A stretch of 62,121 bases of DNA, filler included, from Actinobacteria bacterium UBA7524 (GCA_002478275.1; 8 parts of 8 records of this genome joined end to end with filler, not necessarily neighbours in it); one strand, 5' to 3'. Shown: positions 3,653 to 59,993, counted from the whole stretch's first letter. The notes: generated by a model from the letters alone, not told the origin. Program-made: numbers and translations.

Positions 3653-3752
3653 NNNNNNNNNNNNNNNNNNNNNNNNNNNNNNNNNNNNNNNNNNNNTTAA
3701 TTAATTAANNNNNNNNNNNNNNNNNNNNNNNNNNNNNNNNNNNNNNNNNNNN

Positions 3753-12444: not shown

Positions 12445-12471
12445 GCCGCTCCTTTCGAGTGGTCGCGGTGG

Positions 12472-22924: not shown

Positions 22925-23024
22925 NNNNNNNNNNNNNNNNNNNNNNNNNNNNNNNNNNNNNNNNNNNNTTAATTAATTAANNNNNNNNNNNNNNNNNNNN
23001 NNNNNNNNNNNNNNNNNNNNNNNN

Positions 23025-24749: not shown

Positions 24750-25002
24750 GTCTAACGCTTGTGCGGATGAGCTNNNNNNNNNNNNNNNNNNNNNNNNNNN
24801 NNNNNNNNNNNNNNNNNNNNNNNNNNNNNNNNNNNNNNNNNNNNNNNNNNNNNNNNNNNNNNNNNNNNNNNNNNNNNNNNNNNNNNNNNNNNNNNNNNNN
24901 NNNNNNNNNNNNNTTGCGCATGACACGCGAGCCGCGGGCCATACGCGTCTACCCCAATCACCGTACCGGCGCGGCGAGTCGTTGTCGATGCGCGTGTTGG
25001 AC
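24750..25002 (-). repeat. Two partial attC sites flanking an N gap
   Basis: 24750-24773 GTCTAACGCTTGTGCGGATGAGCT is near-identical to the start of attC 24092; 24914-25002 is a hairpin ending GTCGATGCGCGTGTTGGAC. Confidence 0.8.
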
Positions 25003-28652: not shown

Positions 28653-28752
28653 NNNNNNNNNNNNNNNNNNNNNNNNNNNNNNNNNNNNNNNNNNNNTTAA
28701 TTAATTAANNNNNNNNNNNNNNNNNNNNNNNNNNNNNNNNNNNNNNNNNNNN

Positions 28753-31162: not shown

Positions 31163-31447
31163 CTATGCCGACACGTGCAGCTTGAGCCCGAGCGAGCGCA
31201 CGACCTTTTGCACGGTACCGAACTCAGGGTTGCCCTCAGGTGACAAAGCCTTGTAGAGACTCTCGCGCCCGAGCCCGGTCTCACGGGCGATCTGCGTCAT
31301 ACCCTTCGCGCGCGCGACATCTCCGAGGGCGGCGGCAAGAAGCGCCGGGTCATCCTCTTCGAGGGCTGCATCGAGATACGCCGCGATGGCCTCGTCTGAA
31401 TCGAGGTAGCGGGTGACATCCCAGGGATGTGTCTTCGTCTTAGCCAT
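31163..31447 (-). CDS. Addiction module antidote (HTH antitoxin)
   Basis: WDVTRYLDSDEAIAAYL, ALGDVARAKGMTQIARETGLGRESLYKALS..GNPEFGT. Confidence 0.92.
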   Translation of the reverse strand: MAKTKTHPWDVTRYLDSDEAIAAYLDAALEEDDPALLAAALGDVARAKGMTQIARETGLGRESLYKALSPEGNPEFGTVQKVVRSLGLKLHVSA

Positions 31448-31458
31448 CACAGTCCTCC

Positions 31459-31749
31459 TCACAACCCGCGCGCCAGTTCCTTCGCGCGTTCGATGTCGCG
31501 CCTCTGGGTGGACTTGTCGCCACCCGCAAGTAGCACGATCACGGTCTCGCCTTGCCGGATGAAGTAGATACGGTAGCCCGGACCGTAGGTGATCCTGAGC
31601 TCTGACACTCCGTCTCCGACCGGCTTGGCGTCTCCCAGATTGCCGAGGGACACCCGCCGGATGCGTGCGGCGATGCGCAGTTGTGCGTTCAGATCGCGAA
31701 GCGACTCGAACCATTTCCGGTACGCATCTGTCTCCCGAATCTCGTACAT
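31459..31749 (-). CDS. Addiction module killer (RelE/ParE-family toxin)
   Basis: WFESLRD..GNLGDAKPVGDGVSELRI.YGPGYRIYF..LLAGGDKSTQ. Confidence 0.92.
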   Translation of the reverse strand: MYEIRETDAYRKWFESLRDLNAQLRIAARIRRVSLGNLGDAKPVGDGVSELRITYGPGYRIYFIRQGETVIVLLAGGDKSTQRRDIERAKELARGL

Positions 31750-31755
31750 GCTGTC

Positions 31756-31784
31756 AGTGTATCCCCAAAGATACATTCTGGCAA
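31756..31784 (-). promoter_or_regulatory. Sigma70 promoter and palindromic operator of the TA cassette (leaderless)
   Basis: TTGCCA-17bp-TACACT, ATG 6 nt after the -10; operator TGTATC-N6-GATACA. Confidence 0.8.
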
Positions 31785-32293: not shown

Positions 32294-32422
32294 CCGGCCA
32301 CCCCCTAGTAGGCCTAACGTGGNNNNNNNNNNNNNNNNNNNNNNNNNNNNNNNNNNNNNNNNNNNNTTAATTAATTAANNNNNNNNNNNNNNNNNNNNNN
32401 NNNNNNNNNNNNNNNNNNNNNN

Positions 32423-33560: not shown

Positions 33561-33755
33561 ATGCAGCACATAGGACTGATTGGCCAGAAATATCGGGGAT
33601 GTCAGGACAAAGAGGCTCAGGCTATGGCGTGCTCAGTACTGGACCTTTGCTGGTCGTATGACGGCAGTGGTTGGTGCCCCAACTACGACGTCTGCAACTA
33701 CGACTTCAAGACAAGGTGCCCAGTGTATGACTCCTGCAACGCCGACTACAGCTAG
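33561..33755 (+). CDS. Cys-rich RiPP (ranthipeptide-like) precursor, 64 aa
   Basis: MQHIGLIGQKYRGCQDKEAQAMA-CSVLDLCWSYDGSGW-CPNYDVCNYDFKTR-CPVYDSCNADYS; good RBS; directly upstream of a radical SAM/SPASM gene. Confidence 0.8.
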   Translation: MQHIGLIGQKYRGCQDKEAQAMACSVLDLCWSYDGSGWCPNYDVCNYDFKTRCPVYDSCNADYS

Positions 33756-33998
33756 AAGCCTCATCCGCACCCAACGCAATCAGACAGGTCGGGCGTGGAG
33801 TCTCGCGCTGCTTGTTCATGACGCAAGCTAGACACGCGCGCTTATCAAATCTGGCATCGCTGGCCCAAGGGCGCGCTCCGCGTGATGATGAACCTCACTC
33901 TCCTATCGGCCGTACAACAAGTTCAGCGCAGCCCGCGCCGTAGGTCGGGGGGTCCGTCTGCCCCCCGCCTACCACTTCACCTACATCTAGGAGGAGTA

Positions 33999-35363
33999 AT
34001 GCACGAGTTCTCAATCAGGGACCGCTCGTACCTCGTGGACGAGGAGACCTTCGTATGTCTCTCCCCTGATGAAGTGGCATTCAGGGGACTGCACATTTGG
34101 GAGGAGGCCGGACGCGGACCTGAAGGGGATGTGAGGTCCAGACTACTTGCCGAAGGATTTCCCCCAGATTCGGTTGATGAGTTCGCAAGAGAACTCCCCG
34201 AGTTGAGCGAAATGCTGTCAGCTCATCGCATGACGGAGGAAGTCCCTCTGTCCATTCGCAACCTCGAGCTGCACGTCGCGCATTCATGCAACCTTGGCTG
34301 CCAGTACTGCTTCGCGGGGCAAGGCGCCTATGGGCTTAAGCAGACGCTGATGTCTGATGAGGTAGCCTTCCAGGCCGTCGATATGCTCGTTGAAGGCTCT
34401 AAGAGTAGTGAGCCCCTCGGAATCGTCTTCTTCGGAGGAGAGCCGCTGATGAATCGCGCGCTGATTCGCAAGACGATCACACATGCCAAGGAGCACCACT
34501 CGAACAGGTCTTTCCAGTACTCTGTCACGACCAACGGCACCCTCATCGACGAAGAAGTGGTGACCCTGTTCAAAGAGAACAACTTCACTGTCGTGGTCAG
34601 CATGGATGGCGTCGGCGGTACGCAAGACACGCTTAGACCCTACAAGAACGGACGTGGAAGTTCAGCGGACATTGTGCGCAACGTGGGAAGCCTCACGAAA
34701 CACATGCCGGCCACCGTGCGATGCACGCTCACTAGACGGAATCTGGCGATGATGGAGATCTGCGACGAGCTTTGTGCCATCGGCTTTCGTAAGGTGCACT
34801 TTGCACCCGTCAGCGCTGAGGACGATGACTTGCGCATCGATATGGAGAGCCTTCACGTGTTGAAACGCGAGCTGCTCGGGTTCGCCGACGAGTTCATCGA
34901 ACGCGCCAAGGAGCGTCGCCCGCAGAGATTCTCTGGATTCGATGACCTCCTCTCTCAGCTCAACAGGGGCACCACCACGTCGGTGGGTTGTGGCGCGGGA
35001 CGGCGGCTTGTCGCAGTCGCCCCGGATGGCGATTTGTACCCTTGCCATCGCTATGTCGGGACATCTGCCTACAAGATGGGCGATGTCTGGCAGGGAATGG
35101 ACGACTGCGCTTCTGAGCGTTTCCGGAGAGTGAACACAAGCACGCGCGAGGACTGCCGGACGTGTTGGATCCGGGGCGTGTGCGGCGGAGGCTGCGTTCA
35201 TGAGGCGTCCCGAGATGACGGGAGTATCGGACGAGTTGCCGACTCAGTCATGTGTGACTACCGCCGCACATGCGCTGAGGTTGCAATCGACCTGTTGTGG
35301 CGCCTCGAAGCCGAGCAAGTGAAGGACGTGCTGGAAGCCTCCGACGGGAAGACGGCATGTTGA
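33999..35363 (+). CDS. Radical SAM/SPASM peptide maturase (SCIFF/CteB-like)
   Basis: LHVAHSCNLGCQYCF, FFGGEPL, TTNGTL, SMDG, CGAG..PDGDLYPCH, CRTCWIRGVCGGGC; RBS AGGAGG. Confidence 0.92.
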   Translation: MHEFSIRDRSYLVDEETFVCLSPDEVAFRGLHIWEEAGRGPEGDVRSRLLAEGFPPDSVDEFARELPELSEMLSAHRMTEEVPLSIRNLELHVAHSCNLGCQYCFAGQGAYGLKQTLMSDEVAFQAVDMLVEGSKSSEPLGIVFFGGEPLMNRALIRKTITHAKEHHSNRSFQYSVTTNGTLIDEEVVTLFKENNFTVVVSMDGVGGTQDTLRPYKNGRGSSADIVRNVGSLTKHMPATVRCTLTRRNLAMMEICDELCAIGFRKVHFAPVSAEDDDLRIDMESLHVLKRELLGFADEFIERAKERRPQRFSGFDDLLSQLNRGTTTSVGCGAGRRLVAVAPDGDLYPCHRYVGTSAYKMGDVWQGMDDCASERFRRVNTSTREDCRTCWIRGVCGGGCVHEASRDDGSIGRVADSVMCDYRRTCAEVAIDLLWRLEAEQVKDVLEASDGKTAC

Positions 35364-36241
35364 GTCCCGCACTCCAAGTCGATGGAGTCTCCAAGACGTA
35401 CCGCGACAACGTGCGCGCGCTGATGAGCGTTGACCTTAGTCTGGGGTGTGGCGTCTTCGGACTGCTGGGCCCTAACGGGGCGGGAAAGACCACACTGCTG
35501 AGGCTCCTGGCCACCCTCATCGAGCCGACGTCAGGCCGCATCGCCCTCGATGGTCTTGACTCCAAGCGTGATCGCGCTCGCTATCGCTCGAGCCTGGGCT
35601 ATCTTCCCCAACGGTTCGGCCTCCACTCGCGTCTGACCGCCCACGAGCACGTGCTCTACTTCGCATCGCTCAAAGGCATCACAGGCGCTCCTGCGCGTGC
35701 TGATGCGGAACGCCTCATAGAGGAGGTCGGGCTGTCGTCCGTGGCCGGTCGTCAGGTCGGGGGCCTCTCAGGGGGGATGAAGCAGCGGATCGGCATCGCG
35801 GGGGCGCTGCTCGGGTCCCCAAGGCTCATCGTGGTAGACGAGCCGACCGCCGGACTAGATCCCGAGGAGCGGATTCGCTTCCGCAACCTTCTGGAACAGG
35901 TGTCTCGCGACGCTGTGGTGATTCTCTCAACGCATATCGTCCAGGATGTGGATCTCGGATGTTCGCGCGTGGCCGTTATCGCCGGGGGCCGGATTCTGCA
36001 CGACTCCAGTCCGGACGAGCTAGCCGCTGTGGCCCGGAACAAGGTGTGGACCCTCGAGACTCAGCCTGAGTGCCTTGAGCAACTGAAGCACACGCATGCC
36101 ATCACATCAGTGCAGAGCCAACCGAGCGGTGCTGTCCGCGCCCGTCTTGTCGGCCGAGAGGCTGTCGCCGGGGCAGTGCCCGCTGACGCACAGGTGGAGG
36201 ATGGTTACGTGGAGTTGCTCAGGCCAGGTGGCCTGTCGTGA
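35357..36241 (+). CDS. ABC transporter ATP-binding protein
   Basis: GPNGAGKTT, LSGGMKQR, VDEPTAGLD, STH. Confidence 0.93.
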   Translation: MLSPALQVDGVSKTYRDNVRALMSVDLSLGCGVFGLLGPNGAGKTTLLRLLATLIEPTSGRIALDGLDSKRDRARYRSSLGYLPQRFGLHSRLTAHEHVLYFASLKGITGAPARADAERLIEEVGLSSVAGRQVGGLSGGMKQRIGIAGALLGSPRLIVVDEPTAGLDPEERIRFRNLLEQVSRDAVVILSTHIVQDVDLGCSRVAVIAGGRILHDSSPDELAAVARNKVWTLETQPECLEQLKHTHAITSVQSQPSGAVRARLVGREAVAGAVPADAQVEDGYVELLRPGGLS

Positions 36242-37870
36242 GTCCCGCCACCCTCACTGTGGCCCGGGTTGAGATCAGCCGATTCTGGAGTTCGCCGGCG
36301 CGTGTTGGAGCCCTGCTGCTCGTAGTCGTAGCAGGGTGGGTCCTGGGTGGACCGCTGAACCAGGCGCCCGAGGTCTATCGCACGTCGAGCGACTGGCCGC
36401 TTGCCGGCCAGGCGTTACAGGTGGCGGCGGCCATCGCTGCCCTTCTGGGCTGTGGATGGGCTGCCGGAGCCGTGCTTGACGATGCAGACGGCGGGATCCT
36501 GGAGATGGTCATCGCTTCGGGCACTTCGGCACGAGCGTACGTGCTCGGCAAGATCGCCGCTCTCATGGCAGTCCTGTCGACCCCTGCCATCGTGCTGGCG
36601 TTCCTCCTCCCGATTCAGCGCCGGGCTGAGGTCGGACTCGGCAGCCTCTGGCCGTACCTTGCCGCCTTCCTGGTCGTGTANNNNNNNNNNNNNNNNNNNN
36701 NNNNNNNNNNNNNNNNNNNNNNNNNNNNNNNNNNNNNNNNNNNNNNNNNNNNNNNNNNNNNNNNNNNNNNNNNNNNNNNNNNNNNNNNNNNNNNNNNTGG
36801 TCCTGGTCGTGTACATCCCCACAAGTGGATTCGCCGTCTGCTTCGGCGCGGCGGCAGGCACACTGGCGCGGAGCCGGTCGCTCGCGATCGTCACCTTTGC
36901 AGTCTTGTGGGTGACAGGCTTCATGGGGTTTGCGATGCCTGTCGTGACACAGGTTCTCGACGTGACAGGGGCTTCGCTCAACACCGCCTTCTTCCAGAGC
37001 GTGTCCGCGACTGCCGGCGGTGTTGATGCGGCTGTGGTGCCAGCGGCGGCCTCATACATGCGAGAGCTGCTGCTCTATGCGCGGCTGTCGCTTGGATTCC
37101 TGGTGCTCGGCGCGCTGCTGTCTGCAGGTGTACTGGGTGTCTGGCTGACTCGACGATGGCAGGGCGATGCTCTGCCCCTTTTTGGAGGCCGCGTGGCTGC
37201 AGGGGTGCCGCGCGAGCCAGGCCGGCAGTGGTTGCTCGGACTAAGGGTTGGAGGATTCGGCAGAATTGCCGCAGCCATGGCGGCTGCTCTGGCGACATGC
37301 GTGCTATCGGCAACGACCGACGATCCTCGGCGCGTCGGCATCTTCCTTATCGAGTCGATGACGCCACTGCTCTTCGTCTTTGCCTATGCGAGTGTGTTCC
37401 CGTCGGATGCGACGGCGGGCGTGAGTGAGACGACTCTGTCCACGCCTGGTTTCCGCAGACCCTACCTGATGCGCCTTGCCGCAACAACGCTGGCGTTGCT
37501 ACTCACCCTGCTCGTCCAGGTGGGTGTCTGGGGCAAACACATGCCGTTCAGTGTGCCGTCCGCGTTGATTTTGGGTCTCACACCAGCGCTGCTGTTCGGC
37601 GGCGCTGCGTGGGTGCTCGGCGTGATGTCGCGAAACGCAGCAACAGCATCCACGACGATGTCGGCCGTATGGGTCGTGGCGCAGACCCCCTTCGTGGCGA
37701 CATTCATGTCGAGTTCGTGGCTGAGTCGGCTCTATCCGTTCCCGACAAGTCACGGACTCATCGCGAATGTGACGATGCTCGATAGGCTTCCGCTCCTGCT
37801 CGTGGGCCTGATTCTGTTCGGAATCGGACTCGCCAACCTGGGCAGACCCGAACACCTGTTGGCGACGTGA
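36238..37870 (+). CDS. ABC-2 type permease (tandem), one ORF across an overlap gap
   Basis: Many TM helices; TCCTGGTCGTGTA repeated either side of the gap. Confidence 0.7.
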
Positions 37871-38472
37871 TGCCCGATCTCTACACTGCCCTACTGGTCG
37901 TGGGCATGTACGCCGTGCTGCACGTCGGATACACCCTGCGTGTGATTCCTGCGGGGTTCCTGATTGCGGTTGGGGTCGTGATTGTGGCAGTTACCGGCAG
38001 AGCCCAATCTATGATTCTCGACGTCAGCCTGGTTCATGCGTGCATTGCGGGCCCCCTGATAGGCGCGGGCCTGTTTGCGGTGTCGTGCATCGTTTCTCGG
38101 CGGAGTCTTCCGGCCGCCGTGAAGAGGATTGCGCGTTCCCACTCTGGGACTTCAGACGGACATGACTTGCGGAGAATCAGTGGACAACTCGGAGGCGCGC
38201 TGTGGGAGGAAGCCTTCTGGCGCGGCACGGTCGTGTACTTCGCAAGCCCGTCGATCATCGGCATCGGCTTGGCAAACGTGGCCTTCGTGGGTTCACACTA
38301 CCCGCGAGTCCGTTCAGTTGCTGGGTTAGTCGATCTAGCCGTCGTCGGCCTGGTCCTGTCGGTTGTCTACCTAGCTCTCGGAGACGTGTTGGTCGTCGCC
38401 GTGGCCCATTGGGTCCGCAACGCCCTGATACTTGTGTCACTACCTCGAGAGGAGACTCATCATGACTGCTGA
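37867..38472 (+). CDS. CPBP/Abi (CAAX-type) intramembrane metalloprotease
   Basis: EEAFWRG, FVGSH, AHWVRN. Confidence 0.85.
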   Translation: MMPDLYTALLVVGMYAVLHVGYTLRVIPAGFLIAVGVVIVAVTGRAQSMILDVSLVHACIAGPLIGAGLFAVSCIVSRRSLPAAVKRIARSHSGTSDGHDLRRISGQLGGALWEEAFWRGTVVYFASPSIIGIGLANVAFVGSHYPRVRSVAGLVDLAVVGLVLSVVYLALGDVLVVAVAHWVRNALILVSLPREETHHDC

Positions 38473-40153
38473 CAGTGGCCTACGGCCGTTTCTCAAGTAC
38501 GTGCGCCCGCATGCTGCAGGCTTCGTCGCAGCACTTGTCGCCTCTCTCGGGGCCGCCCTGCTGTCGCTGGCCTACCCGCTGCTGCTGAAGCGCCTGCTCG
38601 ATTCATGGTCTGAGGGGGTGGCGAGTGTGGTGTTCTGGCCAATTGTCGGCGTCTTCGCTGCCGCAGCAATTGCCCAGACCGTCACCACCATTGCTGGCCA
38701 GTTCGCGTTCGTCAGGGCTACCCAGAGAGCGCTCGCGTCAATGCGGCTCGATATGCTGGACAAAGTGATGTCGAAGCCAACGAACTTCTTCTCAGCGGAA
38801 CAAGAAGGGAGTGTCCTCTCGGTATTCATGAACGATGTGAACACCGTGAACGGCATGCTGACAGGTGGGCTACTTAGTGTGTTGACGAGTCTCCTCACGC
38901 TATTCGCTGTTCTTGGGGTCTTGTTCTACCTTGATTGGGCCGTCACTCTCATGCTCGCAGCTTTCATGTGCATGTTCGTACTCGTGCAGCTGTGGTTTGG
39001 GCCACGGCTCAGGCGCTTGAGCCGCGCGTACCATGAGCGACTTGCCGGGGTCACCGAGATGCTGCATGAAGCGTATGCAGGTATTCGCGTGATCAAGACA
39101 TTCAACCATGAAGACGGCTACTTGAACCGTTTCGATCGTTGTCTCGGAGCCGCTGTGTCGGCCTTCGAGCGCCTGAATTTGAATGGTCTGGTGATGACGG
39201 AATCTAGCGGGCTCGCCGGCTCGCTCGGCCTGGTGTGCGCGCTGGCATTCATGGGAATGGCGCTATCGCGCGGCACAATCTCGGTGGGTAGCACGGTCGC
39301 ATATCTCAGCCTAAGTTCCTCGGCCTTCGCGCCCCTCCGAGGAGTAATTGGATTCAGCGTGCAGTATCGCACAGCATTGGGCGCTGCAGAACGCATCAGC
39401 GAGCTGATGAACTCCGCACAGTCACGACTCATCCCGGAAGAATCTCGCATACGTACACTCACGACTACCGCCGATGCACCCATATTGCAGTTTGAGTCGG
39501 CCAGCTTCTCCTACGGCGACATCCGCGTATTGGACGAGGTCAGCTTCAGCCTGAGCCGAGGCGAACGCCTCCTGCTTACCGGGCCAAGCGGTGCCGGCAA
39601 GAGCACGTTGATCGACTTGGTACTTGGGTTTGTGCGCCCCGCGAAAGGCGAAATCAGATTCATGGGTGTACCCGTCAGCGAAGCGGACTCGGCATGGCTC
39701 CGAAGTCGGATTTCACTGGTGCAGCAGGATCCCTTCCTATTCAACGATTCTCTCCGATCAAATCTGGCCATCGCGGCGCCGGAGGCCGGGGAGGCAGCGA
39801 TGCTGTCTGCGATTGCCAAGGTGGGTCTTGGGCCGCTCGTAGACCGACTCCCCCGAGGGCTGGACTCCGAAGTGGGAGAGCGAGGCGCCATGCTATCCGG
39901 TGGCGAGAAGCAACGAATCGCTATCGCGAGAGCGTTGCTCCGAGACGGTGACCTGGTCGTTCTGGACGAGGCAACCGCATGGCTGGACTCAGAGACCGAA
40001 CAGGGCATGTGGGACGAATTAGCGGCCTGGCTCGACCACAAAGCGGTCATACTAGTGTCGCACAGGGACAGTACCAGCTTCGGTGCCGGTCGGCACCTGA
40101 GTCTCCGCTCAGGGCGACTCGAAACCATTGTGAGCGTCGTGGCTCAAGGGTAG
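38462..40153 (+). CDS. ABC exporter, fused permease/ATPase
   Basis: TM domain plus GPSGAGKST, LSGGEKQRIAIARA, LDEAT, SHR. Confidence 0.92.
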   Translation: MTADSGLRPFLKYVRPHAAGFVAALVASLGAALLSLAYPLLLKRLLDSWSEGVASVVFWPIVGVFAAAAIAQTVTTIAGQFAFVRATQRALASMRLDMLDKVMSKPTNFFSAEQEGSVLSVFMNDVNTVNGMLTGGLLSVLTSLLTLFAVLGVLFYLDWAVTLMLAAFMCMFVLVQLWFGPRLRRLSRAYHERLAGVTEMLHEAYAGIRVIKTFNHEDGYLNRFDRCLGAAVSAFERLNLNGLVMTESSGLAGSLGLVCALAFMGMALSRGTISVGSTVAYLSLSSSAFAPLRGVIGFSVQYRTALGAAERISELMNSAQSRLIPEESRIRTLTTTADAPILQFESASFSYGDIRVLDEVSFSLSRGERLLLTGPSGAGKSTLIDLVLGFVRPAKGEIRFMGVPVSEADSAWLRSRISLVQQDPFLFNDSLRSNLAIAAPEAGEAAMLSAIAKVGLGPLVDRLPRGLDSEVGERGAMLSGGEKQRIAIARALLRDGDLVVLDEATAWLDSETEQGMWDELAAWLDHKAVILVSHRDSTSFGAGRHLSLRSGRLETIVSVVAQG

Positions 40154-40318: not shown

Positions 40319-40933
40319 CTACGGCGACCGGCGTTCCTGAGAACCCGGCAGCTCCTCAGGCGTAGCGTCGGCCCGCTGCGGCCGCAGGGCGCGGGCCACG
40401 GCGGAGTGACTGACGCCGAGGGCGCCTGCAATCTGGCGGTAGGGCATGCCCTCGCCGCGCAAGCGCTTCGCCAGCGCCACACGTTCCGGTGTCATGACGG
40501 TCGGCCGGCCGCCGACGCGTCCTTCGGCGCGAGCGCGGGCCAGACCGTCGCGTGTGTTCTGGCGGATCGTATCGACGCGCAGCTGAGCGAAGACCGCGAT
40601 GATGCTGTAGAACGCGCGGCCCATCGGCGACGTCGTGTCGATCGCGGGCTCGGTGAGCGAGCGCAGGTCGATAGACCGGCGCTCGAGCTCGTCGAAGATC
40701 TGGAGCATCTGCTGTTGGGATCCCGCCAGCCGGTCGAGCCGGTAGACGAGGAGCGTGTCCCCGTCTCGCAGGTAGTCCAGGCAGGCCTTCCACTGCGGGC
40801 GGTCGGCGCGCCGGCTGGACTCCCCGTGATCGGTGAAGACCCGGACCGCTCCGGCGTTCCGTAGCGCGGTCTCCTGCATCCCTGGATCCTGGTCCCGCGT
40901 CGAGACGCGGGCGTAGCCGATAAGAGCGCCCAC
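40319..40933 (-). CDS. Serine recombinase (resolvase/invertase)
   Basis: IGYARVST, DRPQW, VYRLDRL, ARAEGRVGGRP, C-terminal HTH. Confidence 0.93.
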   Translation of the reverse strand: MGALIGYARVSTRDQDPGMQETALRNAGAVRVFTDHGESSRRADRPQWKACLDYLRDGDTLLVYRLDRLAGSQQQMLQIFDELERRSIDLRSLTEPAIDTTSPMGRAFYSIIAVFAQLRVDTIRQNTRDGLARARAEGRVGGRPTVMTPERVALAKRLRGEGMPYRQIAGALGVSHSAVARALRPQRADATPEELPGSQERRSP

Positions 40934-40937
40934 CTTC

Positions 40938-41621
40938 TCAGCGCTCCCTCAGCCGGGCGAACCAGGACCGGAGGGCGTTCGCGTCAAGTGCGAGTGCCGG
41001 CGCGTCCCGCTCGATGGTCGCCGCCCGGAAGACCGGCACGAGCGGGCGCGGGTCCGGCTCGCCGTACGGGTCTGCCGGTGCGGACAACCGGGAGGCCGTG
41101 TTCCACGTCTGCGGATCGATCGTATGGAAGCGGAGGCGGAACGCCGAGCGCTCCGCCACGTGCGCCATGAAGACCTTGGACGTCCGCCCGTTGCCCTCCC
41201 GGAACGGGTGCGCGTGATTCAGGTAGACGAACGCGCGGGCGGCCGCGGCCGCGAACGCGTCACGATCGAGAGTCCGCCAGTCGGTCGCCTCGATCACGCG
41301 GCGGGCGTAGCCGACGTACCGGCCGATGTGATCCGGGGGCGCGAAGGCGCTATTGCCCTTCTCCATCCCCACCGTGCGATACTCGCCAGCCCACTCATAC
41401 ACGTTGATGAACAGATGCGCGTGGATCGCGCGCAGGTGGGCGCCGTCGTAGGTGCGCGGGATCTCCACTCTACCGTGCTTGATATCCGCCTCGCGGCGAT
41501 CCGTCTCTCTATGCTCCCGGATGTGCAGGGCGAGCAGATCCCGCTCGCCCCACTTGTTCCGGAGCACTTCGCCGCCAGGCTCCCACAGGTAGGCGTTCCA
41601 GCGCTCCCACTCATCGCTCAT
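40938..41621 (-). CDS. Fic family toxin (AMPylase)
   Basis: HPFREGNGRTSK Fic motif. Confidence 0.92.
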   Translation of the reverse strand: MSDEWERWNAYLWEPGGEVLRNKWGERDLLALHIREHRETDRREADIKHGRVEIPRTYDGAHLRAIHAHLFINVYEWAGEYRTVGMEKGNSAFAPPDHIGRYVGYARRVIEATDWRTLDRDAFAAAAARAFVYLNHAHPFREGNGRTSKVFMAHVAERSAFRLRFHTIDPQTWNTASRLSAPADPYGEPDPRPLVPVFRAATIERDAPALALDANALRSWFARLRER

Positions 41622-41848
41622 CGTGCGGCCTTGGCCTTCTGCACGCGGAGCTCTGTGCGGCGATCGTACTCCGCATCGTCGATCTCGCCCTTGTCCCAGG
41701 CGATAAGGTCCGCCACGTCCTCGCGGTTCGGCTTCCAGCCTTCATGCCAGTTGCTCGCGAAGATCTCCAGGTAGCTCTCGATCGTCTCTCCATCCATCCC
41801 GACGAAGAGATCCGGGTAGAGCCTCACCAGATCGAGTGTCTTCGGCAC
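41618..41848 (-). CDS. VbhA/FicA-like antitoxin
   Basis: SNWHEG matches the (S/T)xxxE(G/N) inhibitory motif; overlaps the fic start; RBS AGGAGG. Confidence 0.8.
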   Translation of the reverse strand: MPKTLDLVRLYPDLFVGMDGETIESYLEIFASNWHEGWKPNREDVADLIAWDKGEIDDAEYDRRTELRVQKAKAAR

Positions 41849-42102
41849 GGTGGGCCTCCTGTCTGGCCGTGGTCTATCTCCATGGTACGCTCTTGTCTCG
41901 AAAACGTCACGCTCGGGTTGCGGTACACTTTCATTTCGATACAGGGTTTCGGTACATGGCGCCGTGCGTGAGCGCCTGCCCGGGTCCGGCGGCCTTGGCG
42001 GCGTCTCTATCGTCTTCGTTTTCGGTGCAAAACACCCCTTCGGAGGCCTGCGAAGGGGTGTGCCGTTCATCCCTGAAAACCGACCGCTCTTGCTGCGTTC
42101 TA

Positions 42103-42125: not shown

Positions 42126-42225
42126 NNNNNNNNNNNNNNNNNNNNNNNNNNNNNNNNNNNNNNNNNNNNTTAATTAATTAANNNNNNNNNNNNNNNNNNN
42201 NNNNNNNNNNNNNNNNNNNNNNNNN

Positions 42226-42264: not shown

Positions 42265-42804
42265 TCAGCCTACCTGACCCGCAGACTGTCGGGACAGGGT
42301 CTCTACAGCCTGCACGTGGTCGTCAAGCCGCTGAGTGAAGGCCCGAGAGAGCATATCCACCACTTCGTCGAGCGTTCCGCTGAGGAGGTCGTACTCCTCA
42401 TTGAGATAGGGATCCGGCAAGCCAAGCTCCTGCGCGACGCGGGCAACTGCCTTCGCTTGAGCAGCATTGCTCTTGGCCGTGAATCCGTAGATGCGGCACT
42501 TGGTCGGATCGGACAACCGCTCGGTCCTCATGGCATCTGAGTACACTACCGAGTACTTCCATTCGCCGAACTGATCGAGCCCCGGAAGGTCGGTCTTCTT
42601 CACGTAGAAGCTAACGTACCCGCCGTCCTTCTGAACGTACTCTCCAAACGTGACGGACAGATCGCCGCGCGTCTTGAGTTCCTGTCGGACTGTCGCAGCC
42701 AACTTGTTGGCGATCTCATCGAGGTAGCGATGTGCTCCTGACCTGGCCTGCTCAAGCAGATAGTAGTCAGCAAGGTACAAGCGAGCGCTCTCATCCAACT
42801 TCAT
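42265..42804 (-). CDS. Hypothetical protein coupled to the PD-(D/E)XK nuclease (cassette)
   Basis: ATGA overlap with the upstream nuclease stop. Confidence 0.75.
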   Translation of the reverse strand: MKLDESARLYLADYYLLEQARSGAHRYLDEIANKLAATVRQELKTRGDLSVTFGEYVQKDGGYVSFYVKKTDLPGLDQFGEWKYSVVYSDAMRTERLSDPTKCRIYGFTAKSNAAQAKAVARVAQELGLPDPYLNEEYDLLSGTLDEVVDMLSRAFTQRLDDHVQAVETLSRQSAGQVG

Positions 42805-43727
42805 CGTGATCCCTCCAAGAGCAGGTCTACAAGCAGTCTGTTCCGGTCAACGATCCGGTCGAAGCGAAGGCGCTCGCCGAAGTCCGCATCCTGGGTTGCT
42901 GAAGCAGCTCGAGCCTCCAGGTCTTTGATCTCATCTTCAGCCCGTTCGTACGGACCTAGCGCCAAGTCCACGGCGAATCTCAGGAGGTTCTCTCGAGCAG
43001 TGGCTGACAGGTCGGTATCTCGCAGCAGGTCGAGGGCGACGTGGGCTAGATCGGAATGTGACAGGCCCAACCAGTCCACCAGACCGGACGAGGCACTGCC
43101 ACCGGGCGTCAGGTAGATGCGAATCTTCGACAAGTCCCCATACGCGGGGTTCCCGTCGATAGCGATGTCGTACCGGACGAGCTGTCGATCACCGCTGTTC
43201 GGATTGGTGCTTTGGCCGCTCTTCACTTTGTGCTCGATGAAGAACACGTAGCCGGAGCACTCAACCACGACATCACAGGTGCAGCCGACTGAGCGCCCGT
43301 TCTGCCCCGGTGCGGTGCCGATGTAGACCTCTGCCTCAACGACTGCCTCAGTCACGCTGATCTCGCTGGGGATGGAAGGGTTCGAGAGCCTCATCAGCGA
43401 GAGCAGACCATCGAGGTACCGGGCTCCGAGCCCATGCGGCTTCGAAGGGTTCAGGAAGTAGGCCAAGTATTGGGTGTAGCGAGTCTCAGCAGTGCCGTGA
43501 CCACATACGGACAGCACGGGCACGGGAATCCCGCCTGCGAGACTGGCCCGTAGAGCTTGCGCCTCGCCGAGTCTCCGATCTTCCCAGTCTCGATGGTATG
43601 CGGACCGAATCCGTTCGATGGTCTCAGGGAGCCGCGCGCCCTCAGCAGACTGAGTCAAGTCCTCCAGTTGCTCGCGGCGGCGCGCCTCGACTACCCGCTG
43701 GATGATTGATTCGAGTCTGGTGGTCAC
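42801..43727 (-). CDS. PD-(D/E)XK nuclease (PDDEXK_4-like), cassette
   Basis: ETRYTQYLAYFLNP..HGLG, CDVVV..IEHKV, QLVRY, IYLTP; RBS AAGGAGG. Confidence 0.8.
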   Translation of the reverse strand: MTTRLESIIQRVVEARRREQLEDLTQSAEGARLPETIERIRSAYHRDWEDRRLGEAQALRASLAGGIPVPVLSVCGHGTAETRYTQYLAYFLNPSKPHGLGARYLDGLLSLMRLSNPSIPSEISVTEAVVEAEVYIGTAPGQNGRSVGCTCDVVVECSGYVFFIEHKVKSGQSTNPNSGDRQLVRYDIAIDGNPAYGDLSKIRIYLTPGGSASSGLVDWLGLSHSDLAHVALDLLRDTDLSATARENLLRFAVDLALGPYERAEDEIKDLEARAASATQDADFGERLRFDRIVDRNRLLVDLLLEGSR

Positions 43728-43805
43728 GCGTCTCCTCCTTGGAGACCCATCGTCGCACGTGCCTCTGACACGTTGGCTCGGAGATGCAGAGCCTCGCTTG
43801 AGCGT

Positions 43806-43866
43806 GCCTAACGCTCTTGGAGATGAGCCGCGAGCGAAGCGAGTCGGCTCGATCTCCGGGTTAGCT
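43806..43866 (-). repeat. Integron attC site (61 bp)
   Basis: Plus strand GCCTAAC..GGAGATGAGCCGC gagcgaagcgag TCGGCTCGATCTCC GG GTTAGCT. Confidence 0.88.
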
Positions 43867-43973
43867 CGGCGCAACATGAGCGTGTTCTGCCAGCGGATGG
43901 AAATCAGAAATCGGCAAGACACGAGTGACGCCGAGAAGCGCAGCAGCGCCATATGCCCCACAAGAAATGGGCC

Positions 43974-50050: not shown

Positions 50051-50299
50051 GGCTAACGTTCTTGGGCGTAACCCGCAACGCCGACGCCCGGCTTCCTGCC
50101 CGAGTCTACCTCACACNNNNNNNNNNNNNNNNNNNNNNNNNNNNNNNNNNNNNNNNNNNNNNNNNNNNNNNNNNNNNNNNNNNNNNNNNNNNNNNNNNNN
50201 NNNNNNNNNNNNNNNNNNNNNNNNNNNNNNNNNNNNNNNNNNNNNNNNNNNNNNNNNNNNNNNNNNNNNNNNNNNNNCGGGTTGACGCCCGGGTTAGAC
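50051..50299 (-). repeat. attC site spanning an N gap
   Basis: GGCTAAC..GGGCGTAACCCG ... CGGGTTGACGCCC GG GTTAGAC arms are complementary. Confidence 0.8.
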
Positions 50300-50430: not shown

Positions 50431-50447
50431 CGGAGGGGAATGTGCGC

Positions 50448-51881
50448 ATGAGTACCCAGATAGGCGTCCGTGAAGCCGCAGAACTCTTGGGAATCAGTCA
50501 GCAGAGAGTGCGGACGCTCTGTCGGTTAGGGACTCTGCCGGCCAAGATGGTCGGGAACGCCTGGGTCGTCGAGCGTGAAGCCGTGGATCTCTACGGACTC
50601 CAGACCGCGCATATGGTCGCCGAAGACCACCCTACGTATCAACCGGTCAGCTCCGCCCAGAGGAGGCCTATCGCGCTCAGCTTCTTCAGCGGGGCGATGG
50701 GCTTGGATTTGGGCATCGAGAAGACAGGGTTCCGTGTCCTGCTGGCGTGCGAGGTCGACAAGTACTGCAGGCAGACCATAGCCATCAACCGCCCAGCGAC
50801 CGCGCTGCTCAGCGACATCAGCACATACTCGAAGGGTGACGTCCTGGAGGCCGCAGGGCTCACCGAGGATGACGACATCGACCTGGTCATTGGTGGACCC
50901 CCTTGTCAGGCGTTCAGCACTGCCGGCAAGAGGAAGGCTTTCAACGACGACAGGGGGAACGTCTTCCTTGACTACATCGAACTAGCCCTGCAGCTTCGAC
51001 CCAAGTTCATCGTTATTGAGAACGTTCGGGGACTGCTGTCTTGCCCCTTGGATCACAGACCTCATGATCAGCGCGGTTCCGAGTTCCCAGACCTGACTGC
51101 TGACGAACTGAAGGGCGGCGCGCTGAACTTCATTCTCTCGAAGCTCCGGAACTCCGGGTACGGCTACTCCTTCAATCTGTATAACTCGGCCAACTTCGGG
51201 ACTCCCCAGATCAGAGAGCGCGTCATCATCGTTTGTGCTCGGGATGGCCAAGCACCACCGTTCCTGACTCCGACGCACTCTGAGAACGGAGAGTACGGAC
51301 TACTCAGGTGGCGTACTTTCAGGCAAGCGACTGCGGGACTGACGGATCACCAACACCTGACCTTCCCGGAGAAGCGGCTGAAGTATTATCGAATGCTCAA
51401 GCCCGGCCAGAACTGGAGGGCTCTTCCTAGAGAGTTGCAGAGAGAAGCTTTGGGCAATTCCTTCTATGCTGGCGGCGGCAAGACCGGCTTCCTGAGAAGG
51501 CTCGACTGGGACAAGCCCGCTCCCACGTTGGTGACCCACCCGGCGATGCCGGCGACCGACCTCGCCCATCCCGAGGAGGACAGACCTCTGTCTTTGCAGG
51601 AGTACAAGAGACTTCAGGAATTCCCTGACGACTGGCAGCTTGCCGGGCCCATGATTCAGCAGTACAAGCAGATTGGAAACGCTGTTCCGTGCAGCCTAGG
51701 ACAAGCCGTCGGCCGCCTGGTTATCGAGCTGATCAACGGGGAGACGCCCCAGGACTACCCGGGCTTCCCGTACTCCCGGTACAAGAACACCGCCAACACC
51801 GATTGGGAGAGAGAGTTCGCCCAGGCCCTCAGCAGATCTGTCGTGCCATCTCCGACTCAAGAGGAGCTGGCTCTCACCTAG
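50448..51881 (+). CDS. DNA (cytosine-5) methyltransferase with N-terminal HTH
   Basis: FFSGAMGLDLG, GGPPCQAFS, ENVRGL, PQIRER, QEFPDDW, QIGNAVP; N-terminal EAAELLGISQQRVR. Confidence 0.95.
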   Translation: MSTQIGVREAAELLGISQQRVRTLCRLGTLPAKMVGNAWVVEREAVDLYGLQTAHMVAEDHPTYQPVSSAQRRPIALSFFSGAMGLDLGIEKTGFRVLLACEVDKYCRQTIAINRPATALLSDISTYSKGDVLEAAGLTEDDDIDLVIGGPPCQAFSTAGKRKAFNDDRGNVFLDYIELALQLRPKFIVIENVRGLLSCPLDHRPHDQRGSEFPDLTADELKGGALNFILSKLRNSGYGYSFNLYNSANFGTPQIRERVIIVCARDGQAPPFLTPTHSENGEYGLLRWRTFRQATAGLTDHQHLTFPEKRLKYYRMLKPGQNWRALPRELQREALGNSFYAGGGKTGFLRRLDWDKPAPTLVTHPAMPATDLAHPEEDRPLSLQEYKRLQEFPDDWQLAGPMIQQYKQIGNAVPCSLGQAVGRLVIELINGETPQDYPGFPYSRYKNTANTDWEREFAQALSRSVVPSPTQEELALT

Positions 51882-52643: not shown

Positions 52644-54113
52644 AGTCACTATGAGATGGCCGGCCCGATTCCGGTGTATACGTGGATCGTCCGCGGGAAT
52701 GAGCCCGCGGCGCCGACAAACGGAGGGACCGNNNNNNNNNNNNNNNNNNNNNNNNNNNNNNNNNNNNNNNNNNNNNNNNNNNNNNNNNNNNNNNNNNNNN
52801 NNNNNNNNNNNNNNNNNNNNNNNNNNNNNNNNNNNNNNNNNNNNNNNNNNNNNNNNNNNNNNNNNNNNNNNNNNNNNNNNNNNNNNNNNNNNNNNNNNNN
52901 NNNNNNNNNNNNNNNNNNNNNNNNNNNNNNNNNNNNNNNNNNNNNNNNNNNNNNNNNNNNNNNNNNNNNNNNNNNCGGCTACTTGGCCGCCACGACCCCC
53001 TCGGCACACAGCTGTGCTACGAGGCCGGACCCACCGGCTACGACACCCACCGGCTCATAAGCGCACTGGGCTTTCCTTGCGAGGTGATCGCTCCTTCGAT
53101 GATCCCGCGCAGGAGCGGGGTACGCGTCAAGACCGACCGCATCGATGCCAGGAACCTCGCACGTCTGCACCGTGCAGGCGAGCTCACGAGCGTCCGCGTC
53201 CCGGGGATCGCCGAGGAGGCCGTGCGCGACCTCATACGCGTGCGCGAGGAGGTCAAGTGCGACCGAAGGATCGCGCGTCAGCGCATCCGCAGCTTCCTGC
53301 TGCGTTATGGCAAGCGCTATACGGGTCCGCGTGACGCATGGTCCAGGCGCTTCGAGACCTGGGCGCGCGCCGTGAAGTTCGACGAACCACACGCGGACGA
53401 GGCGTTCGGGCATCTGCTTGCCGCTTACTTCATGCGCGACGCACAACTCGCCGAGATGGGCAGGCGCATCGAGGAGATCGCGCAGACCGAGCCTTTCGCG
53501 ACGGATGTGCGCCGCCTGAGTGCGTTGCGCGGCATCTCCACTCTCTCTTCGATGACCATCCTCGCCGAGACATGCGACTTCGCTCGATTCGGTGATGCGG
53601 GAAGCTACATGGGGTTCACCGGCCTGACCCCTTGCGAACACTCGAGCGGGGCGAGCCGCCACCAAGGCTCGATCACCAAGACCGGCAACCGTCACGTACG
53701 CCGTGTGCTCGTCGAATCGGCCTGGGCATATCGCCACGCGCCTGCGGTGCGAGGCAAGCTCAAAGAACGGCTCGAAGGGCAACCGCCTGAGGTCGCGGCC
53801 TATTCGTGGGCCGCGCAGGTCAGGCTCAACGGAACATATCGACGTCTCGCCGCTAAGAAGGGTGCGCACACCGCCGTCGTGGCCACCGCCCGTGAACTCT
53901 CGGGCTTCATCTGGGGGCTTATGACCGACAACCTCGGCCCCTGCGCGGTAGTAGACGTCATGCACGCGGGTGGGCGCCACATTCCGGAGAGATCCTCGAT
54001 CACGTTATGCGACGTACGTAAGCGCGCGCCTAGTTGGAGGCAGGCTCCGGTCCGACCGAGATGTGGGGGTGAAATCCCCGGATATCAGCATGGTCGAGCG
54101 CCGAACCCATGTG
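52644..54113 (+). mobile_element. IS1111-type IS110 element, copy 2 (gapped, right end missing)
   Basis: Same left end after ACGTCT; homologous transposase at about 52976-53951 and near-identical NCR. Confidence 0.9.
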
Positions 54114-54213
54114 NNNNNNNNNNNNNNNNNNNNNNNNNNNNNNNNNNNNNNNNNNNNTTAATTAATTAANNNNNNNNNNNNNNNNNNNNNNNNNNNNNNN
54201 NNNNNNNNNNNNN

Positions 54214-58102: not shown

Positions 58103-58202
58103 NNNNNNNNNNNNNNNNNNNNNNNNNNNNNNNNNNNNNNNNNNNNTTAATTAATTAANNNNNNNNNNNNNNNNNNNNNNNNNNNNNNNNNNNNNNNNNN
58201 NN

Positions 58203-59993
58203 CCGCCGTTGCGCTGGGAGGACCCGCCATCGCGCACCATGATGGTCTTGGTGCCGGTCAGGTCGCTCATGGTCCGGTGCGTCTTGCCCGACGCGCTGGC
58301 GAGGTAGACGATCGCCGAGCAGTTGCCGCCGATGAGCGAGGCCGCTTCCACGCGGCCCTCGGCATACCGCTCCAGTTGTTCGATGCTCTGCACCACCATG
58401 AGGATTCGGATCCCGCGGCTCCGGGCCATCGTGAGCATGGAGACGAACTCCGGGATCTTGGGGATGTTGCCGAACTCCTCGAACAGGATGTTTACCGGCA
58501 CCGGGAGTCGTCCGCCGTGGGCGTTGGCGGCCTTCACGAGCGCCTGGTAGAGCTGCCGCACGTAGATCGTGACCATGACGTTGTAGGCGTCGCGCTCATC
58601 CGGCGTGATGATGAACACCGCCGACTTGCGCAGNNNNNNNNNNNNNNNNNNNNNNNNNNNNNNNNNNNNNNNNNNNNNNNNNNNNNNNNNNNNNNNNNNN
58701 NNNNNNNNNNNNNNNNNNNNNNNNNNNNNNNNNNNNNNNNNNNNNNNNNNNNNNNNNNNNNNNNNNNNNNNNNNNNNNNNNNNNNNNNNNNNNNNNNNNN
58801 NNNNNNNNNNNNNNNNNNNNNNNNNNNNNNNNNNNNNNNNNNNNNNNNNNNNNNNNNNNNNNNNNNNNNNNNNNNNNNNNNNNNNNNNNNNNNNNNNNNN
58901 NNNNNNNNNNNNNNNNNNNNNNNNNNNNNNNNNNNNNNNNNNNNNNNNNNNNNNNNNNNNNNNNNNNNNNNNNNNNNNNNNNNNNNTAGATCGTCTCTTG
59001 CCGGATGCTGTCGGCGCGCACCGCGGTTCGCTCTTTGCCATACGTTCCGAGTGCCCGGTAGACGTTGAACATGTTGCGCGAAAGCGGGTCGACTCCTTTG
59101 GGTTCGCTGGCGATCAGGAGCGCCGTGGCCGCGATGATCGCCTCGGCGCTGGCGTTCCAGAACGCCTCGTTGCCGCCATGCCCGCCGAGCTGTGCCGAGA
59201 CGATCGTCTTGGCGAGCTCGTGCGCCATGTCCTCGGCGTGTGCGATCTCATCAGACCAGATCAGGTCGACTATCAGGTCCAGCGGCGACCACTGGACGGA
59301 CCGCGATGGATCCCGCAGGTCGATGGTGTCGACGCGGTAGCCCTTGGCCTTGAGGTGCTCGCAGGTGGTGAGGTAGAGCTCGCCTTTGGGGTCCGGAATC
59401 ACCATCGACTCGCCGAGTTCGCCGAGCGCGTAGATGCTCGGCAGCACGATCCGGCGCGTCTTACCCGAGCCGGTGGAGCCGATCACGAGCACGTGGCCCT
59501 CTGAGCCCGAGAGGTAGTAGGTCTCCTTGCGACCGCGCGCGGCCGGGATGGCGCCGATCACGAAGCCCGAGACGCCGGGAGCCGGGGTCGTGCCGGGCGA
59601 CCACGTGACTGCGGAGGCCTCGAGCGCCGCGGGGGTCATGAGGTTCGAGGTGCCGTGTTCACCGCGGCCGGCTGTTCGCGGGATGCCAGCGACGACGCCG
59701 GTGCAGTTGGTGCGCGGGCGCATGAGGTGGCCGGAGATCCAGACCCACCAGGCCACGATGGCGGCGATGAGGAGGAGTGAGAGGATGAGCGTCGGCGGGC
59801 TCGTGACGGCGGCCAGCCAGCGGGTCGGTAGGAGGGAGGGCGCCCACGATGTCAGCGGCGCGGTGTGGGCAGAGTGGCTGAGGGCCAGTGAGGCGAGGGC
59901 GGAGAGGGCCAGGGGGATGAGGGCGGTGGCGAAGCACGCCACCACGGTGGAGGACGCGACTCGCCAGATTTCGGCCTTCCGAGCCACGTGCAC
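58203..59993 (-). CDS. VirD4/TraG type IV coupling protein (gapped, partial)
   Basis: N-terminal TMs, GEHGTS, HVLVIGSTGSGKT, DPKGEL, EEFGN, ARSRGI, QSIEQL. Confidence 0.9.

Follow-up and report, generated by a model that had tools for sequence, protein, structure and literature searches.

Which peptide is made by the gene cluster at positions 33561–40153 of a 62,121-nt stretch of DNA from Actinobacteria bacterium UBA7524 (the whole of which is called the window below), and how might it be cross-linked? The cluster joins the gene of a 64-amino-acid (aa) peptide rich in Cys and Asp to that of a radical SAM/SPASM enzyme and to transport genes, and it had been put forward as a candidate new cluster for a ranthipeptide-like ribosomally synthesised and post-translationally modified peptide (RiPP). 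The peptide is a real, conserved RiPP precursor. Our preferred reading, to which we assign a probability of about 0.6, is that the cluster represents a new ranthipeptide family whose enzyme most likely joins Cys to Asp by up to six thioethers of the kind known from freyrasin. The question turns on the first three features of the cluster:

33561–33755, plus strand: precursor peptide, 64 aa (open reading frame (ORF), Shine-Dalgarno sequence, family alignment and profile search)
33756–33998, plus strand: spacer of 243 nt from precursor to maturase, with a G+C-rich hairpin inside
33999–35363, plus strand: radical SAM/SPASM maturase, 454 aa (Pfam Radical_SAM, Fer4_12 and SPASM; ATG behind GGAGGAG)

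The Precursor Peptide and Its Family

The original prediction described a 64-aa ORF with three C-x3-D-x-C repeats, and the translation of 33561–33755 agrees with it exactly, giving CSVLDLC-WSYD, CPNYDVC-NYD and CPVYDSC-NAD. A leader of about residues 1–23, opening MQHI, is followed by a core of 41 aa with six Asp, one Lys and one Arg (net charge about −4). The Cys residues are 24, 30, 39, 45, 53 and 59 and the Asp residues 28, 34, 43, 48, 57 and 62, which can be read as four C-x3-D pairs (C24-D28, C30-D34, C39-D43 and C53-D57) and two C-x2-D pairs (C45-D48 and C59-D62). The Shine-Dalgarno-like sequence GGGGAGGGG lies 6 nt upstream of the ATG; a later start at ATG 33625 (MACSV...) was ruled out, the longer N-terminus being common to the family. 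Over all six frames of the 1.81-Mb assembly the C-x3-D-x-C motif was counted 94 times, and the frame of the precursor, with three copies, is the only stop-to-stop frame to hold two or more.

A profile built from five precursors and searched against 1.84 billion representative proteins matched 47 proteins at E ≤ 0.001 (12 at E ≤ 1e-10), 35 of which are 56–108 aa long. The alignment on which the following counts rest contains 23 peptides, i.e., 21 of these 35 small relatives and two Collinsella peptides; it omits five truncated or frame-shifted calls (P0123, P0128, P0130, P0141 and P0162), five with extended or partial N-termini (P0126, P0132, P0147, P0150 and P0153), three with more than three repeats (P0142, P0143 and P0159) and one in which the third repeat is missing (P0165). 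Invariant are M1, C24, C30, C39, C45, C59, D43, D48 and D57, and H3 is kept in at least 90% of the peptides. The column of D28 holds 21 Asp and two Glu, that of D62 Asp in 22 of 23, and the fifth Cys stands in one column in 17 peptides and is shifted in six in the printed alignment. The D-x-C spacing is constant in every repeat of all members, whereas the C-xn-D spacings, as read from the alignment, range from 1 to 5.

Two further observations were made in this search. The three peptides omitted for their extra repeats contain four to six Cys/Asp units, so that the repeat number is variable within the family. Furthermore, 12 of the 47 matched proteins are long (256–1022 aa, including P0134–P0136, P0140 and P0144) and were matched in 4–9 separate stretches; these may be unrelated Cys/Asp-rich repeat proteins.

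The MQHI start was originally likened to the leader of SCIFF peptides, the core being considered different, and both halves of this comparison are borne out. M-x-H-I is the common start, and many leaders of the family read M-K-H-I-K-L-L-N against M-K-H-I-K-T-L-N in SCIFF peptides. When the family was aligned with 12 SCIFF peptides by hhalign only residues 1–12 were aligned (probability 21.6%, E 0.001); the likeness to SCIFF is, therefore, one of the leader and does not extend to the core.

Neither Pfam nor NCBIfam has a model that covers peptides of the family, the precursor of the window included. The sole named relative is a “hypothetical protein” of Collinsella intestinalis. A protein atlas gave nothing at ≥0.9, and the nearest named clusters, Cys-rich putative bacteriocins at 0.76–0.77, are leads only. 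Among the 3,421 sactipeptide and ranthipeptide precursors listed in 2023 (PMC10288494), 16 of 18 motif words of the family are absent; each of the remaining two was found a single time, in both cases in an unrelated peptide (one a thermocellin, one a RumMC peptide). Literature searches on ranthipeptides, SCIFF peptides and Collinsella RiPPs gave no description of the family; members may be listed by Hudson et al. (2019) and Precord et al. (2019). Judged by its sequences, this precursor family, with its SCIFF-type leader, its Cys/Asp core and its own maturase clade, is new to the curated libraries.

Distribution of the Family

Homologues of the maturase were searched among 5.8 billion proteins. 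Close relatives are few, and those listed are 84, 53, 52, 45, 41 and 40% identical; the other listed matches are at most 39% identical, and several of those are named SCIFF maturases by their source. A scan of genome contigs with the maturase found 595 relatives, and all counts of genome loci given here rest on the best 80 of these. In 50 of the 80 (L003–L051 and L072) the maturase is 36–43%, mostly 39–40%, identical to that of the window. The records behind these loci are those of Collinsella or Coriobacteriaceae, one of which bears the title “uncultured bacterium,” and cultivable human-gut Collinsella strains are among them. Directly downstream of the maturase the Collinsella loci carry two small paralogous precursor genes with good Shine-Dalgarno sequences, and both precursors open M-K-H-I-H-P and have three Cys/Asp repeats; the two types were found in 50 and 49 of the 80 loci. 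One of these loci (L009) was observed to be an island of about 6 kb, with maturase, two precursors and exporter, between ORFs at 5078–5572 and 11748–12686, both on the minus strand. The C-terminal parts of the two flanking ORFs are nearly identical, which reads like a duplicated flank. A hydrophobic ORF of 48 aa (7983–8129) after the precursors might be an immunity peptide.

A scan of metagenome contigs, from which 80 loci were kept, returned the window's own contig (L083) and a locus (L084) that repeats the whole operon, with a maturase 41%, an ATPase 46%, a CPBP protein 31% and an exporter 35% identical to those of the window, together with the permease. Two peptides of the family are transcribed divergently from its maturase, and the operon forms an island of 45–48% G+C between flanks of 59% G+C. 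Homologous precursors beside homologous maturases, which had been proposed as a check on the cluster, were thus collected from 50 of the 80 genome loci and from this metagenome locus. The SCIFF-type loci of the same scans carry ordinary SCIFF peptides. A small frame of another locus (L130) that fits a crude form of the pattern was rejected as a member, as it has none of the features of the family.

Among sampled genomes of the class to which the window's genome belongs, the precursor profile matched 58 of 401 genomes and 2 of 124 genera, namely the genome of the window and 57 from a single further genus, which belongs to a different order and has the two-gene arrangement of the Collinsella records. 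This genus is presumably Collinsella, and the window's organism would belong to the Coriobacteriia outside Collinsella's order. For the phylum the profile matched 2 of 401 sampled genomes and 2 of 249 genera. In a second phylum, sampled because of a Clostridia-type locus (L061), it matched none of 401 genomes, an empty result that shows nothing by itself. The maturase had no match at E ≤ 1e-20 in the 40 nearest genomes.

The Maturase

Over residues 1–427 the maturase matches CteB (5wgg), a SCIFF maturase of solved structure (8.4e-62). Its CX3CX2C motif is formed by C97, C101 and C104, the seven-Cys set of its SPASM domain by C331, C349, C386, C389, C395, C399 and C419, and its N-terminal part is leader-binding (similar to a RiPP recognition element). 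The start at ATG 33999 is the most likely one. A maturase of the CteB/PapB/QhpD group beside a Cys-bearing precursor, as is found here, assigns the cluster on its sequence to the ranthipeptides.

No curated family of maturases claims the enzyme. It scores 284.6 bits on the NCBIfam model for PapB (NF047865; cut-off 340), 276.4 on that for nif11-type maturases (cut-off 518.7), 265.5 on that for SCIFF maturases (TIGR03974; cut-off 425) and 256.9 on that for QhpD (TIGR03906; cut-off 453). Its closest relatives behave similarly, with 252–293 bits on the PapB, nif11 and SCIFF models and 228–265 on that for QhpD, and by these scores the clade is about equally far from all four families. Two true SCIFF maturases reach 768 and 785.4 bits on TIGR03974, yet 274–276 on the PapB model.

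A more specific indication comes from a single residue. PMC9413430 reports that Arg372 of PapB, implicated by alignment, is essential, its mutation having abolished cross-linking, and a figure legend in PMC10177961 gives C352, C370 and C421 as the ligands of the first auxiliary cluster of PapB. Since C370 is the second SPASM Cys, Arg372 stands two positions after it. The enzyme of the window has the same spacing (C349-H350-R351), a correspondence mapped by numbering and not by an alignment with PapB; CteB has C362-H-Q at this position. The triplet C-H-R was found in all seven members of the maturase clade, and among the next 113 homologues C-H-Q occurs 107 times and C-H-R six times. Of the six exceptions, five have their highest score with the QhpD model and the sixth with that for nif11, and QhpD makes Cys-Asp and Cys-Glu thioethers, as summarized in a review. 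Arg at this position thus appears to track enzymes with an acidic acceptor, and Gln the Thr-linking SCIFF enzymes.

The proposal of a new ranthipeptide-like cluster holds in part: peptide and enzyme are outside the curated families, and the cluster is of the ranthipeptide type with a CteB-like radical SAM/SPASM enzyme, but the ranthipeptide class and the proposed chemistry are already known and it is the precursor family and the maturase clade that are new to the curated libraries.

Proposed Cross-Linking of the Core

The pathway outlined here is one that we infer from sequence in all its parts: the chemical steps, how many rings form and with what topology, the removal of the leader, export and activity. 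The leader, of the SCIFF type with M-x-H-I, would dock on the N-terminal domain of the maturase, as the model described below and homology suggest, and the enzyme would move through the core, in which the unit C-x(1-5)-D-x-C-x(2-3)-D occurs three times in tandem. As has been proposed for PapB, a hydrogen would be abstracted from the beta-carbon of Asp and a Cys at the open auxiliary cluster would close the thioether. Each Cys sulfur would in this way be joined to the beta-carbon of the next Asp, giving up to six small rings. PapB accepts C-Xn-D with n = 0–6 and makes both in-line and nested links according to PMC9413430; the in-line C-to-D spacings of the family are all 1–5.

The precursor is conserved beside its own maturase clade, its Cys and Asp are conserved, the maturase carries the PapB-like Arg, and the genes of the operon are ordered and coupled. 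Cys-to-Asp thioethers are the best-supported chemistry. The rings had originally been predicted to be interlocking Cys-Asp thioethers; the nearly invariant Cys and Asp and the Arg at the position of PapB Arg372 argue for the linkage, whereas the interlocking does not follow, because the sequence equally allows six in-line C-x(2-3)-D rings. This arrangement, in which each repeat would hold two rings, would be the simplest reading.

A structural model of the complex was calculated from the maturase (alignment of seven), the precursor (alignment of 23), three 4Fe-4S clusters and S-adenosylmethionine. It scored 0.78 (runs 0.78, 0.73 and 0.79), against 0.00 for the highest of three controls. This mark is attained by 116 of 157 solved complexes but also by 2 of 215 mismatched pairs. 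The runs share at least 30% of their contacts. In the model, residues 1–11 of the precursor contact residues 19–27, 58–69 and 430–437 of the enzyme, and residues 38–47, which belong to the second repeat and include C39, D43 and C45, are placed in a cavity by 330–337, 349–351 and 398–399. The complex of CteB with CteA has already been solved, and the score may, therefore, mirror the likeness to CteB-CteA and is not independent proof.

Several observations weigh against six freyrasin-like links. The D34 column holds Asn in three of the 23 aligned peptides, with Asp in the other 20, and the strict D-x-C beside a variable C-xn-D could point to a pairing that is not in line. The freyrasin family model NF037957 (cut-off 30 bits) matches none of the five first precursors, including the peptide of the window, and gave only two faint scores, 16.0 and 13.7 bits, on 22 relatives. 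The maturase falls short of the PapB cut-off, and a match to that model is uninformative on the acceptor residue because the Cys-Thr-linking SCIFF maturases score alike. Six Cys need not mean six links, since for CteA, which also has six, only one thioether has been shown according to the review. In the model of the complex the pLDDT (predicted local distance difference test) of the partner is 41–48, so that its fold is uncertain. Finally, the CPBP and ABC-2 (ATP-binding cassette) transporter genes of the operon are absent from the Collinsella loci and are, consequently, not required family-wide.

How, then, do other explanations compare? If the small ORF were a chance frame, with the radical SAM enzyme acting elsewhere, it would be natural that the peptide matches no curated family. 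This is extremely improbable, and in effect refuted, in view of the conservation of the family next to the enzyme clade in three types of locus, the 35 small relatives found by the profile, a motif count that is unique in the genome and a Shine-Dalgarno sequence at all five precursor genes inspected. The cluster might alternatively make a ranthipeptide of the SCIFF kind, with one or a few thioethers, maybe not to Asp, and the other Cys free, in disulfides or binding metal together with Asp. Such a product would agree with the SCIFF-type leader, with a score on the SCIFF maturase model near that on the PapB model, with the single link of CteA demonstrated according to the review and, as we would expect, with a Cys/Asp-rich core suited to metal binding. 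We consider it unlikely, because the alignment with SCIFF peptides ends before the core, because Asp is conserved as strictly as Cys, and because the enzyme has the Arg of the PapB/QhpD type where 107 of 113 SCIFF-like homologues have Gln.

Cys-to-Asp rings could also be closed in a pattern other than that of freyrasin, either backward across D-x-C, each Cys being joined to the Asp two positions ahead of it in the sequence, or nested within each unit, which is where the idea of interlocking rings would fit. The D-x-C spacing, constant where the C-xn-D spacing varies, speaks for this, as do the in-line and nested links of PapA described in PMC9413430 and the Cys of NxxcA, which is linked to the residue three positions earlier in N-x-x-C (review). 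PapB, however, favored C-X3-D over the alternatives in nested test peptides, as described in the same paper, and such a pattern seems to us quite unlikely. A broader view, which is possible but which we regard as rather doubtful, is that the family is a third branch of the ranthipeptides with its own maturase clade, in which the strict D-x-C spacing may mirror a ring pattern unlike that of freyrasin (for instance, one Cys-Asp link running forward and one backward per unit), and that its product is an anionic bacteriocin or signal of anaerobic Coriobacteriia, among them Collinsella, a common genus of the human gut. We keep to a freyrasin-like set of up to six Cys-to-Asp thioethers as the preferred reading.

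Operon Genes and Genomic Context

Four further genes follow the maturase:

35357–36241, plus strand: ATPase of an ABC-2-type transporter, 294 aa from ATG 35357 (Pfam ABC_tran; NCBIfam DrrA-like, 188.6 bits)
36238–37870, plus strand: ABC-2-type permease, about 540 aa (ABC2_membrane_3, below the cut-off)
37867–38472, plus strand: CPBP/Rce1-like intramembrane protease, 201 aa (PF02517, 34.3 bits; cut-off 22.4)
38462–40153, plus strand: fused ABC exporter, 563 aa from ATG 38462 (ABC_membrane and ABC_tran; MsbA-like; GAGGAG before the ATG)

This is the gene set and order originally described. The overlapping starts and stops, said to run through the whole cluster, apply to the four junctions from maturase to exporter (7, 4, 4 or 1, and 11 nt) and not to that between precursor and enzyme, where the 243-nt spacer lies. 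The hairpin in this spacer (33940–33972) has 13 pairs and a 6-nt loop and lies 26 nt ahead of the maturase start. It is not followed by a T run, and the complete spacer does not fold better than shuffled sequences (z −0.99). The hairpin might set the ratio of precursor to enzyme, but that it is an attenuator would be only a guess. A scan of the contig for promoters and terminators gave no more sites than shuffled sequence, and no promoter-like site upstream of the precursor.

The permease gene contains a 117-nt run of N (36681–36797) and the reading frame is unequal on either side of it. The two parts align to residues 30–120 and 160–473 of the single 520-aa permease in L084, and for this reason we read it as one gene. 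In one biofilm metagenome run two versions of the ATPase/permease region 35398–36482 were observed, one of them identical to the window and the other divergent (e.g., 44 differences in a 454-letter contig); precursor and maturase are covered by the identical form only. The divergent version may represent a second strain or a recombinant transporter module.

The fused exporter comprises a membrane part and an ATPase and has no N-terminal peptidase domain. The anionic product would lose its leader and then be exported by this protein. The motifs EEAFWR, FVGSH and HWVRN, which we take to be the three catalytic motifs of CPBP/Rce1-like proteases, are all intact in the translation of the CPBP protein. 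Bacteriocin immunity is another known function of CPBP/Abi proteins. Because of this function, and because neither the ABC-2 transporter nor the CPBP protein is present in the Collinsella loci, we favor protection of the producer as the most likely role of both; alternatively, the CPBP protein could cleave off the leader.

The genome is metagenome-assembled (1.81 Mb in 60 contigs, 83% complete, G+C about 63%), and the window consists of at least eight of its contigs, chained by spacers of 44 N, 12 bases and 44 N. Neighborhoods are not readable across the joins, i.e., the N runs at 3653–3752, 22925–23024, 28653–28752, 32323–32422, 42126–42225, 54114–54213 and 58103–58202; N runs within contigs include 24774–24913, 36681–36797, 50117–50277, 52732–52975 and 58634–58986. 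The cluster lies on a contig of 9,703 bp and 62.7% G+C (C29; 32423–42125 of the window), and because the joins separate contigs, genes outside these limits provide no context for it. The same contig carries, outside the operon:

40319–40933, minus strand: serine recombinase
40938–41621, minus strand: Fic-domain protein
41618–42070, minus strand: VbhA-type antitoxin

The rest of this contig holds one cut, weak sortase-like ORF. The Fic protein and the VbhA-type antitoxin are likely a toxin-antitoxin pair on a mobile or island-like stretch, and together with the recombinase they hint at mobility. The low-G+C islands of related clusters and the patchy spread over genera fit horizontal spread. The claim that the cluster is carried on an integrative element is not upheld: the window is made of joined contigs, no integrase or att (attachment) site was seen on the cluster's contig, and a near-identity search of a plasmid collection with the whole 9.7-kb contig gave zero matches.

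Near-identical DNA was found in contigs of 19 sequencing runs from 11 studies, five rows of which may be the source of the window itself; no RNA run was listed among them, and they are labelled as metagenomes of hydrocarbon, soil, groundwater, sludge, biofilm and landfill. Over the precursor and the maturase, contigs of three runs from three studies are identical to the window, which is uninformative on selection.

Elsewhere in the window, an adjoining contig bears, side by side, genes of a Gp49-like (RelE/HigB-type) toxin and an addiction-module antidote (31163–31776, minus strand), a second toxin-antitoxin pair that is unrelated to the cluster. Other contigs carry a C-5 cytosine DNA methylase with a helix-turn-helix domain (50442–51881, plus strand) and a PD-(D/E)XK nuclease-family protein (42801–43961, minus strand), both possible restriction-modification or defense genes.

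Comparison With Known Systems and Implications

Freyrasin of Paenibacillus polymyxa (PapA/PapB) is the nearest parallel. Like the peptide of the window, PapA has six Cys and six Asp in C-Xn-D pairs, PapB belongs to the same CteB/QhpD group of radical SAM/SPASM enzymes with Arg372 corresponding to Arg351 of the window, and the predicted product would likewise have six thioethers from Cys sulfur to the beta-carbon of Asp. In contrast to freyrasin, the maturase and peptides described here stay below the cut-offs of the freyrasin family, the leader is of the SCIFF type, the core consists of three double units C-xn-D-x-C-xm-D, the hosts are Coriobacteriia and the operon of the window has additional genes for an ABC-2 transporter, for a CPBP protein and for an exporter. 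The SCIFF systems (CteA/CteB of thermocellin and Tte1186a/Tte1186) share the M-K-H-I/V start, six Cys in a short peptide, the alignment of the maturase with CteB over residues 1–427 and a leader that is modeled on the N-terminal domain. They differ in that the SCIFF core (CGECQTSCQSACKTSC...) is absent from the peptide of the window, in the Arg that replaces the SCIFF Gln after the second SPASM Cys, in the score of the maturase on the SCIFF model (265.5 against 768–785 bits) and in the acceptor, which for CteA was shown to be Thr according to the review.

QhpD, which matures QhpC of quinohemoprotein amine dehydrogenase, is a related radical SAM/SPASM enzyme and QhpD-like homologues carry C-H-R, but the substrate here is a small leader-bearing peptide and not an enzyme subunit, and no dehydrogenase genes are present on the contig. 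NxxcA/NxxcB of Streptococcus orisratti is a ranthipeptide system as well, in which a radical SAM enzyme makes a thioether to a beta-carbon; as described in the review, it is set apart by a single Cys-to-Asn link and a different precursor.

The ranthipeptides are a young class of RiPPs of which, according to the review, few members have been characterized, mainly SCIFF peptides, freyrasin and NxxcA, and PMC9413430 describes PapB as already being in use as a tool for peptide stapling. A separate natural family that combines a SCIFF-like leader with a Cys/Asp core would test what sets the acceptor residue, whether Arg or Gln after the second SPASM Cys predicts it, and how many rings can form and in what pattern. 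As the family occurs in cultivable Collinsella of the human gut, its product and role could be searched for directly.

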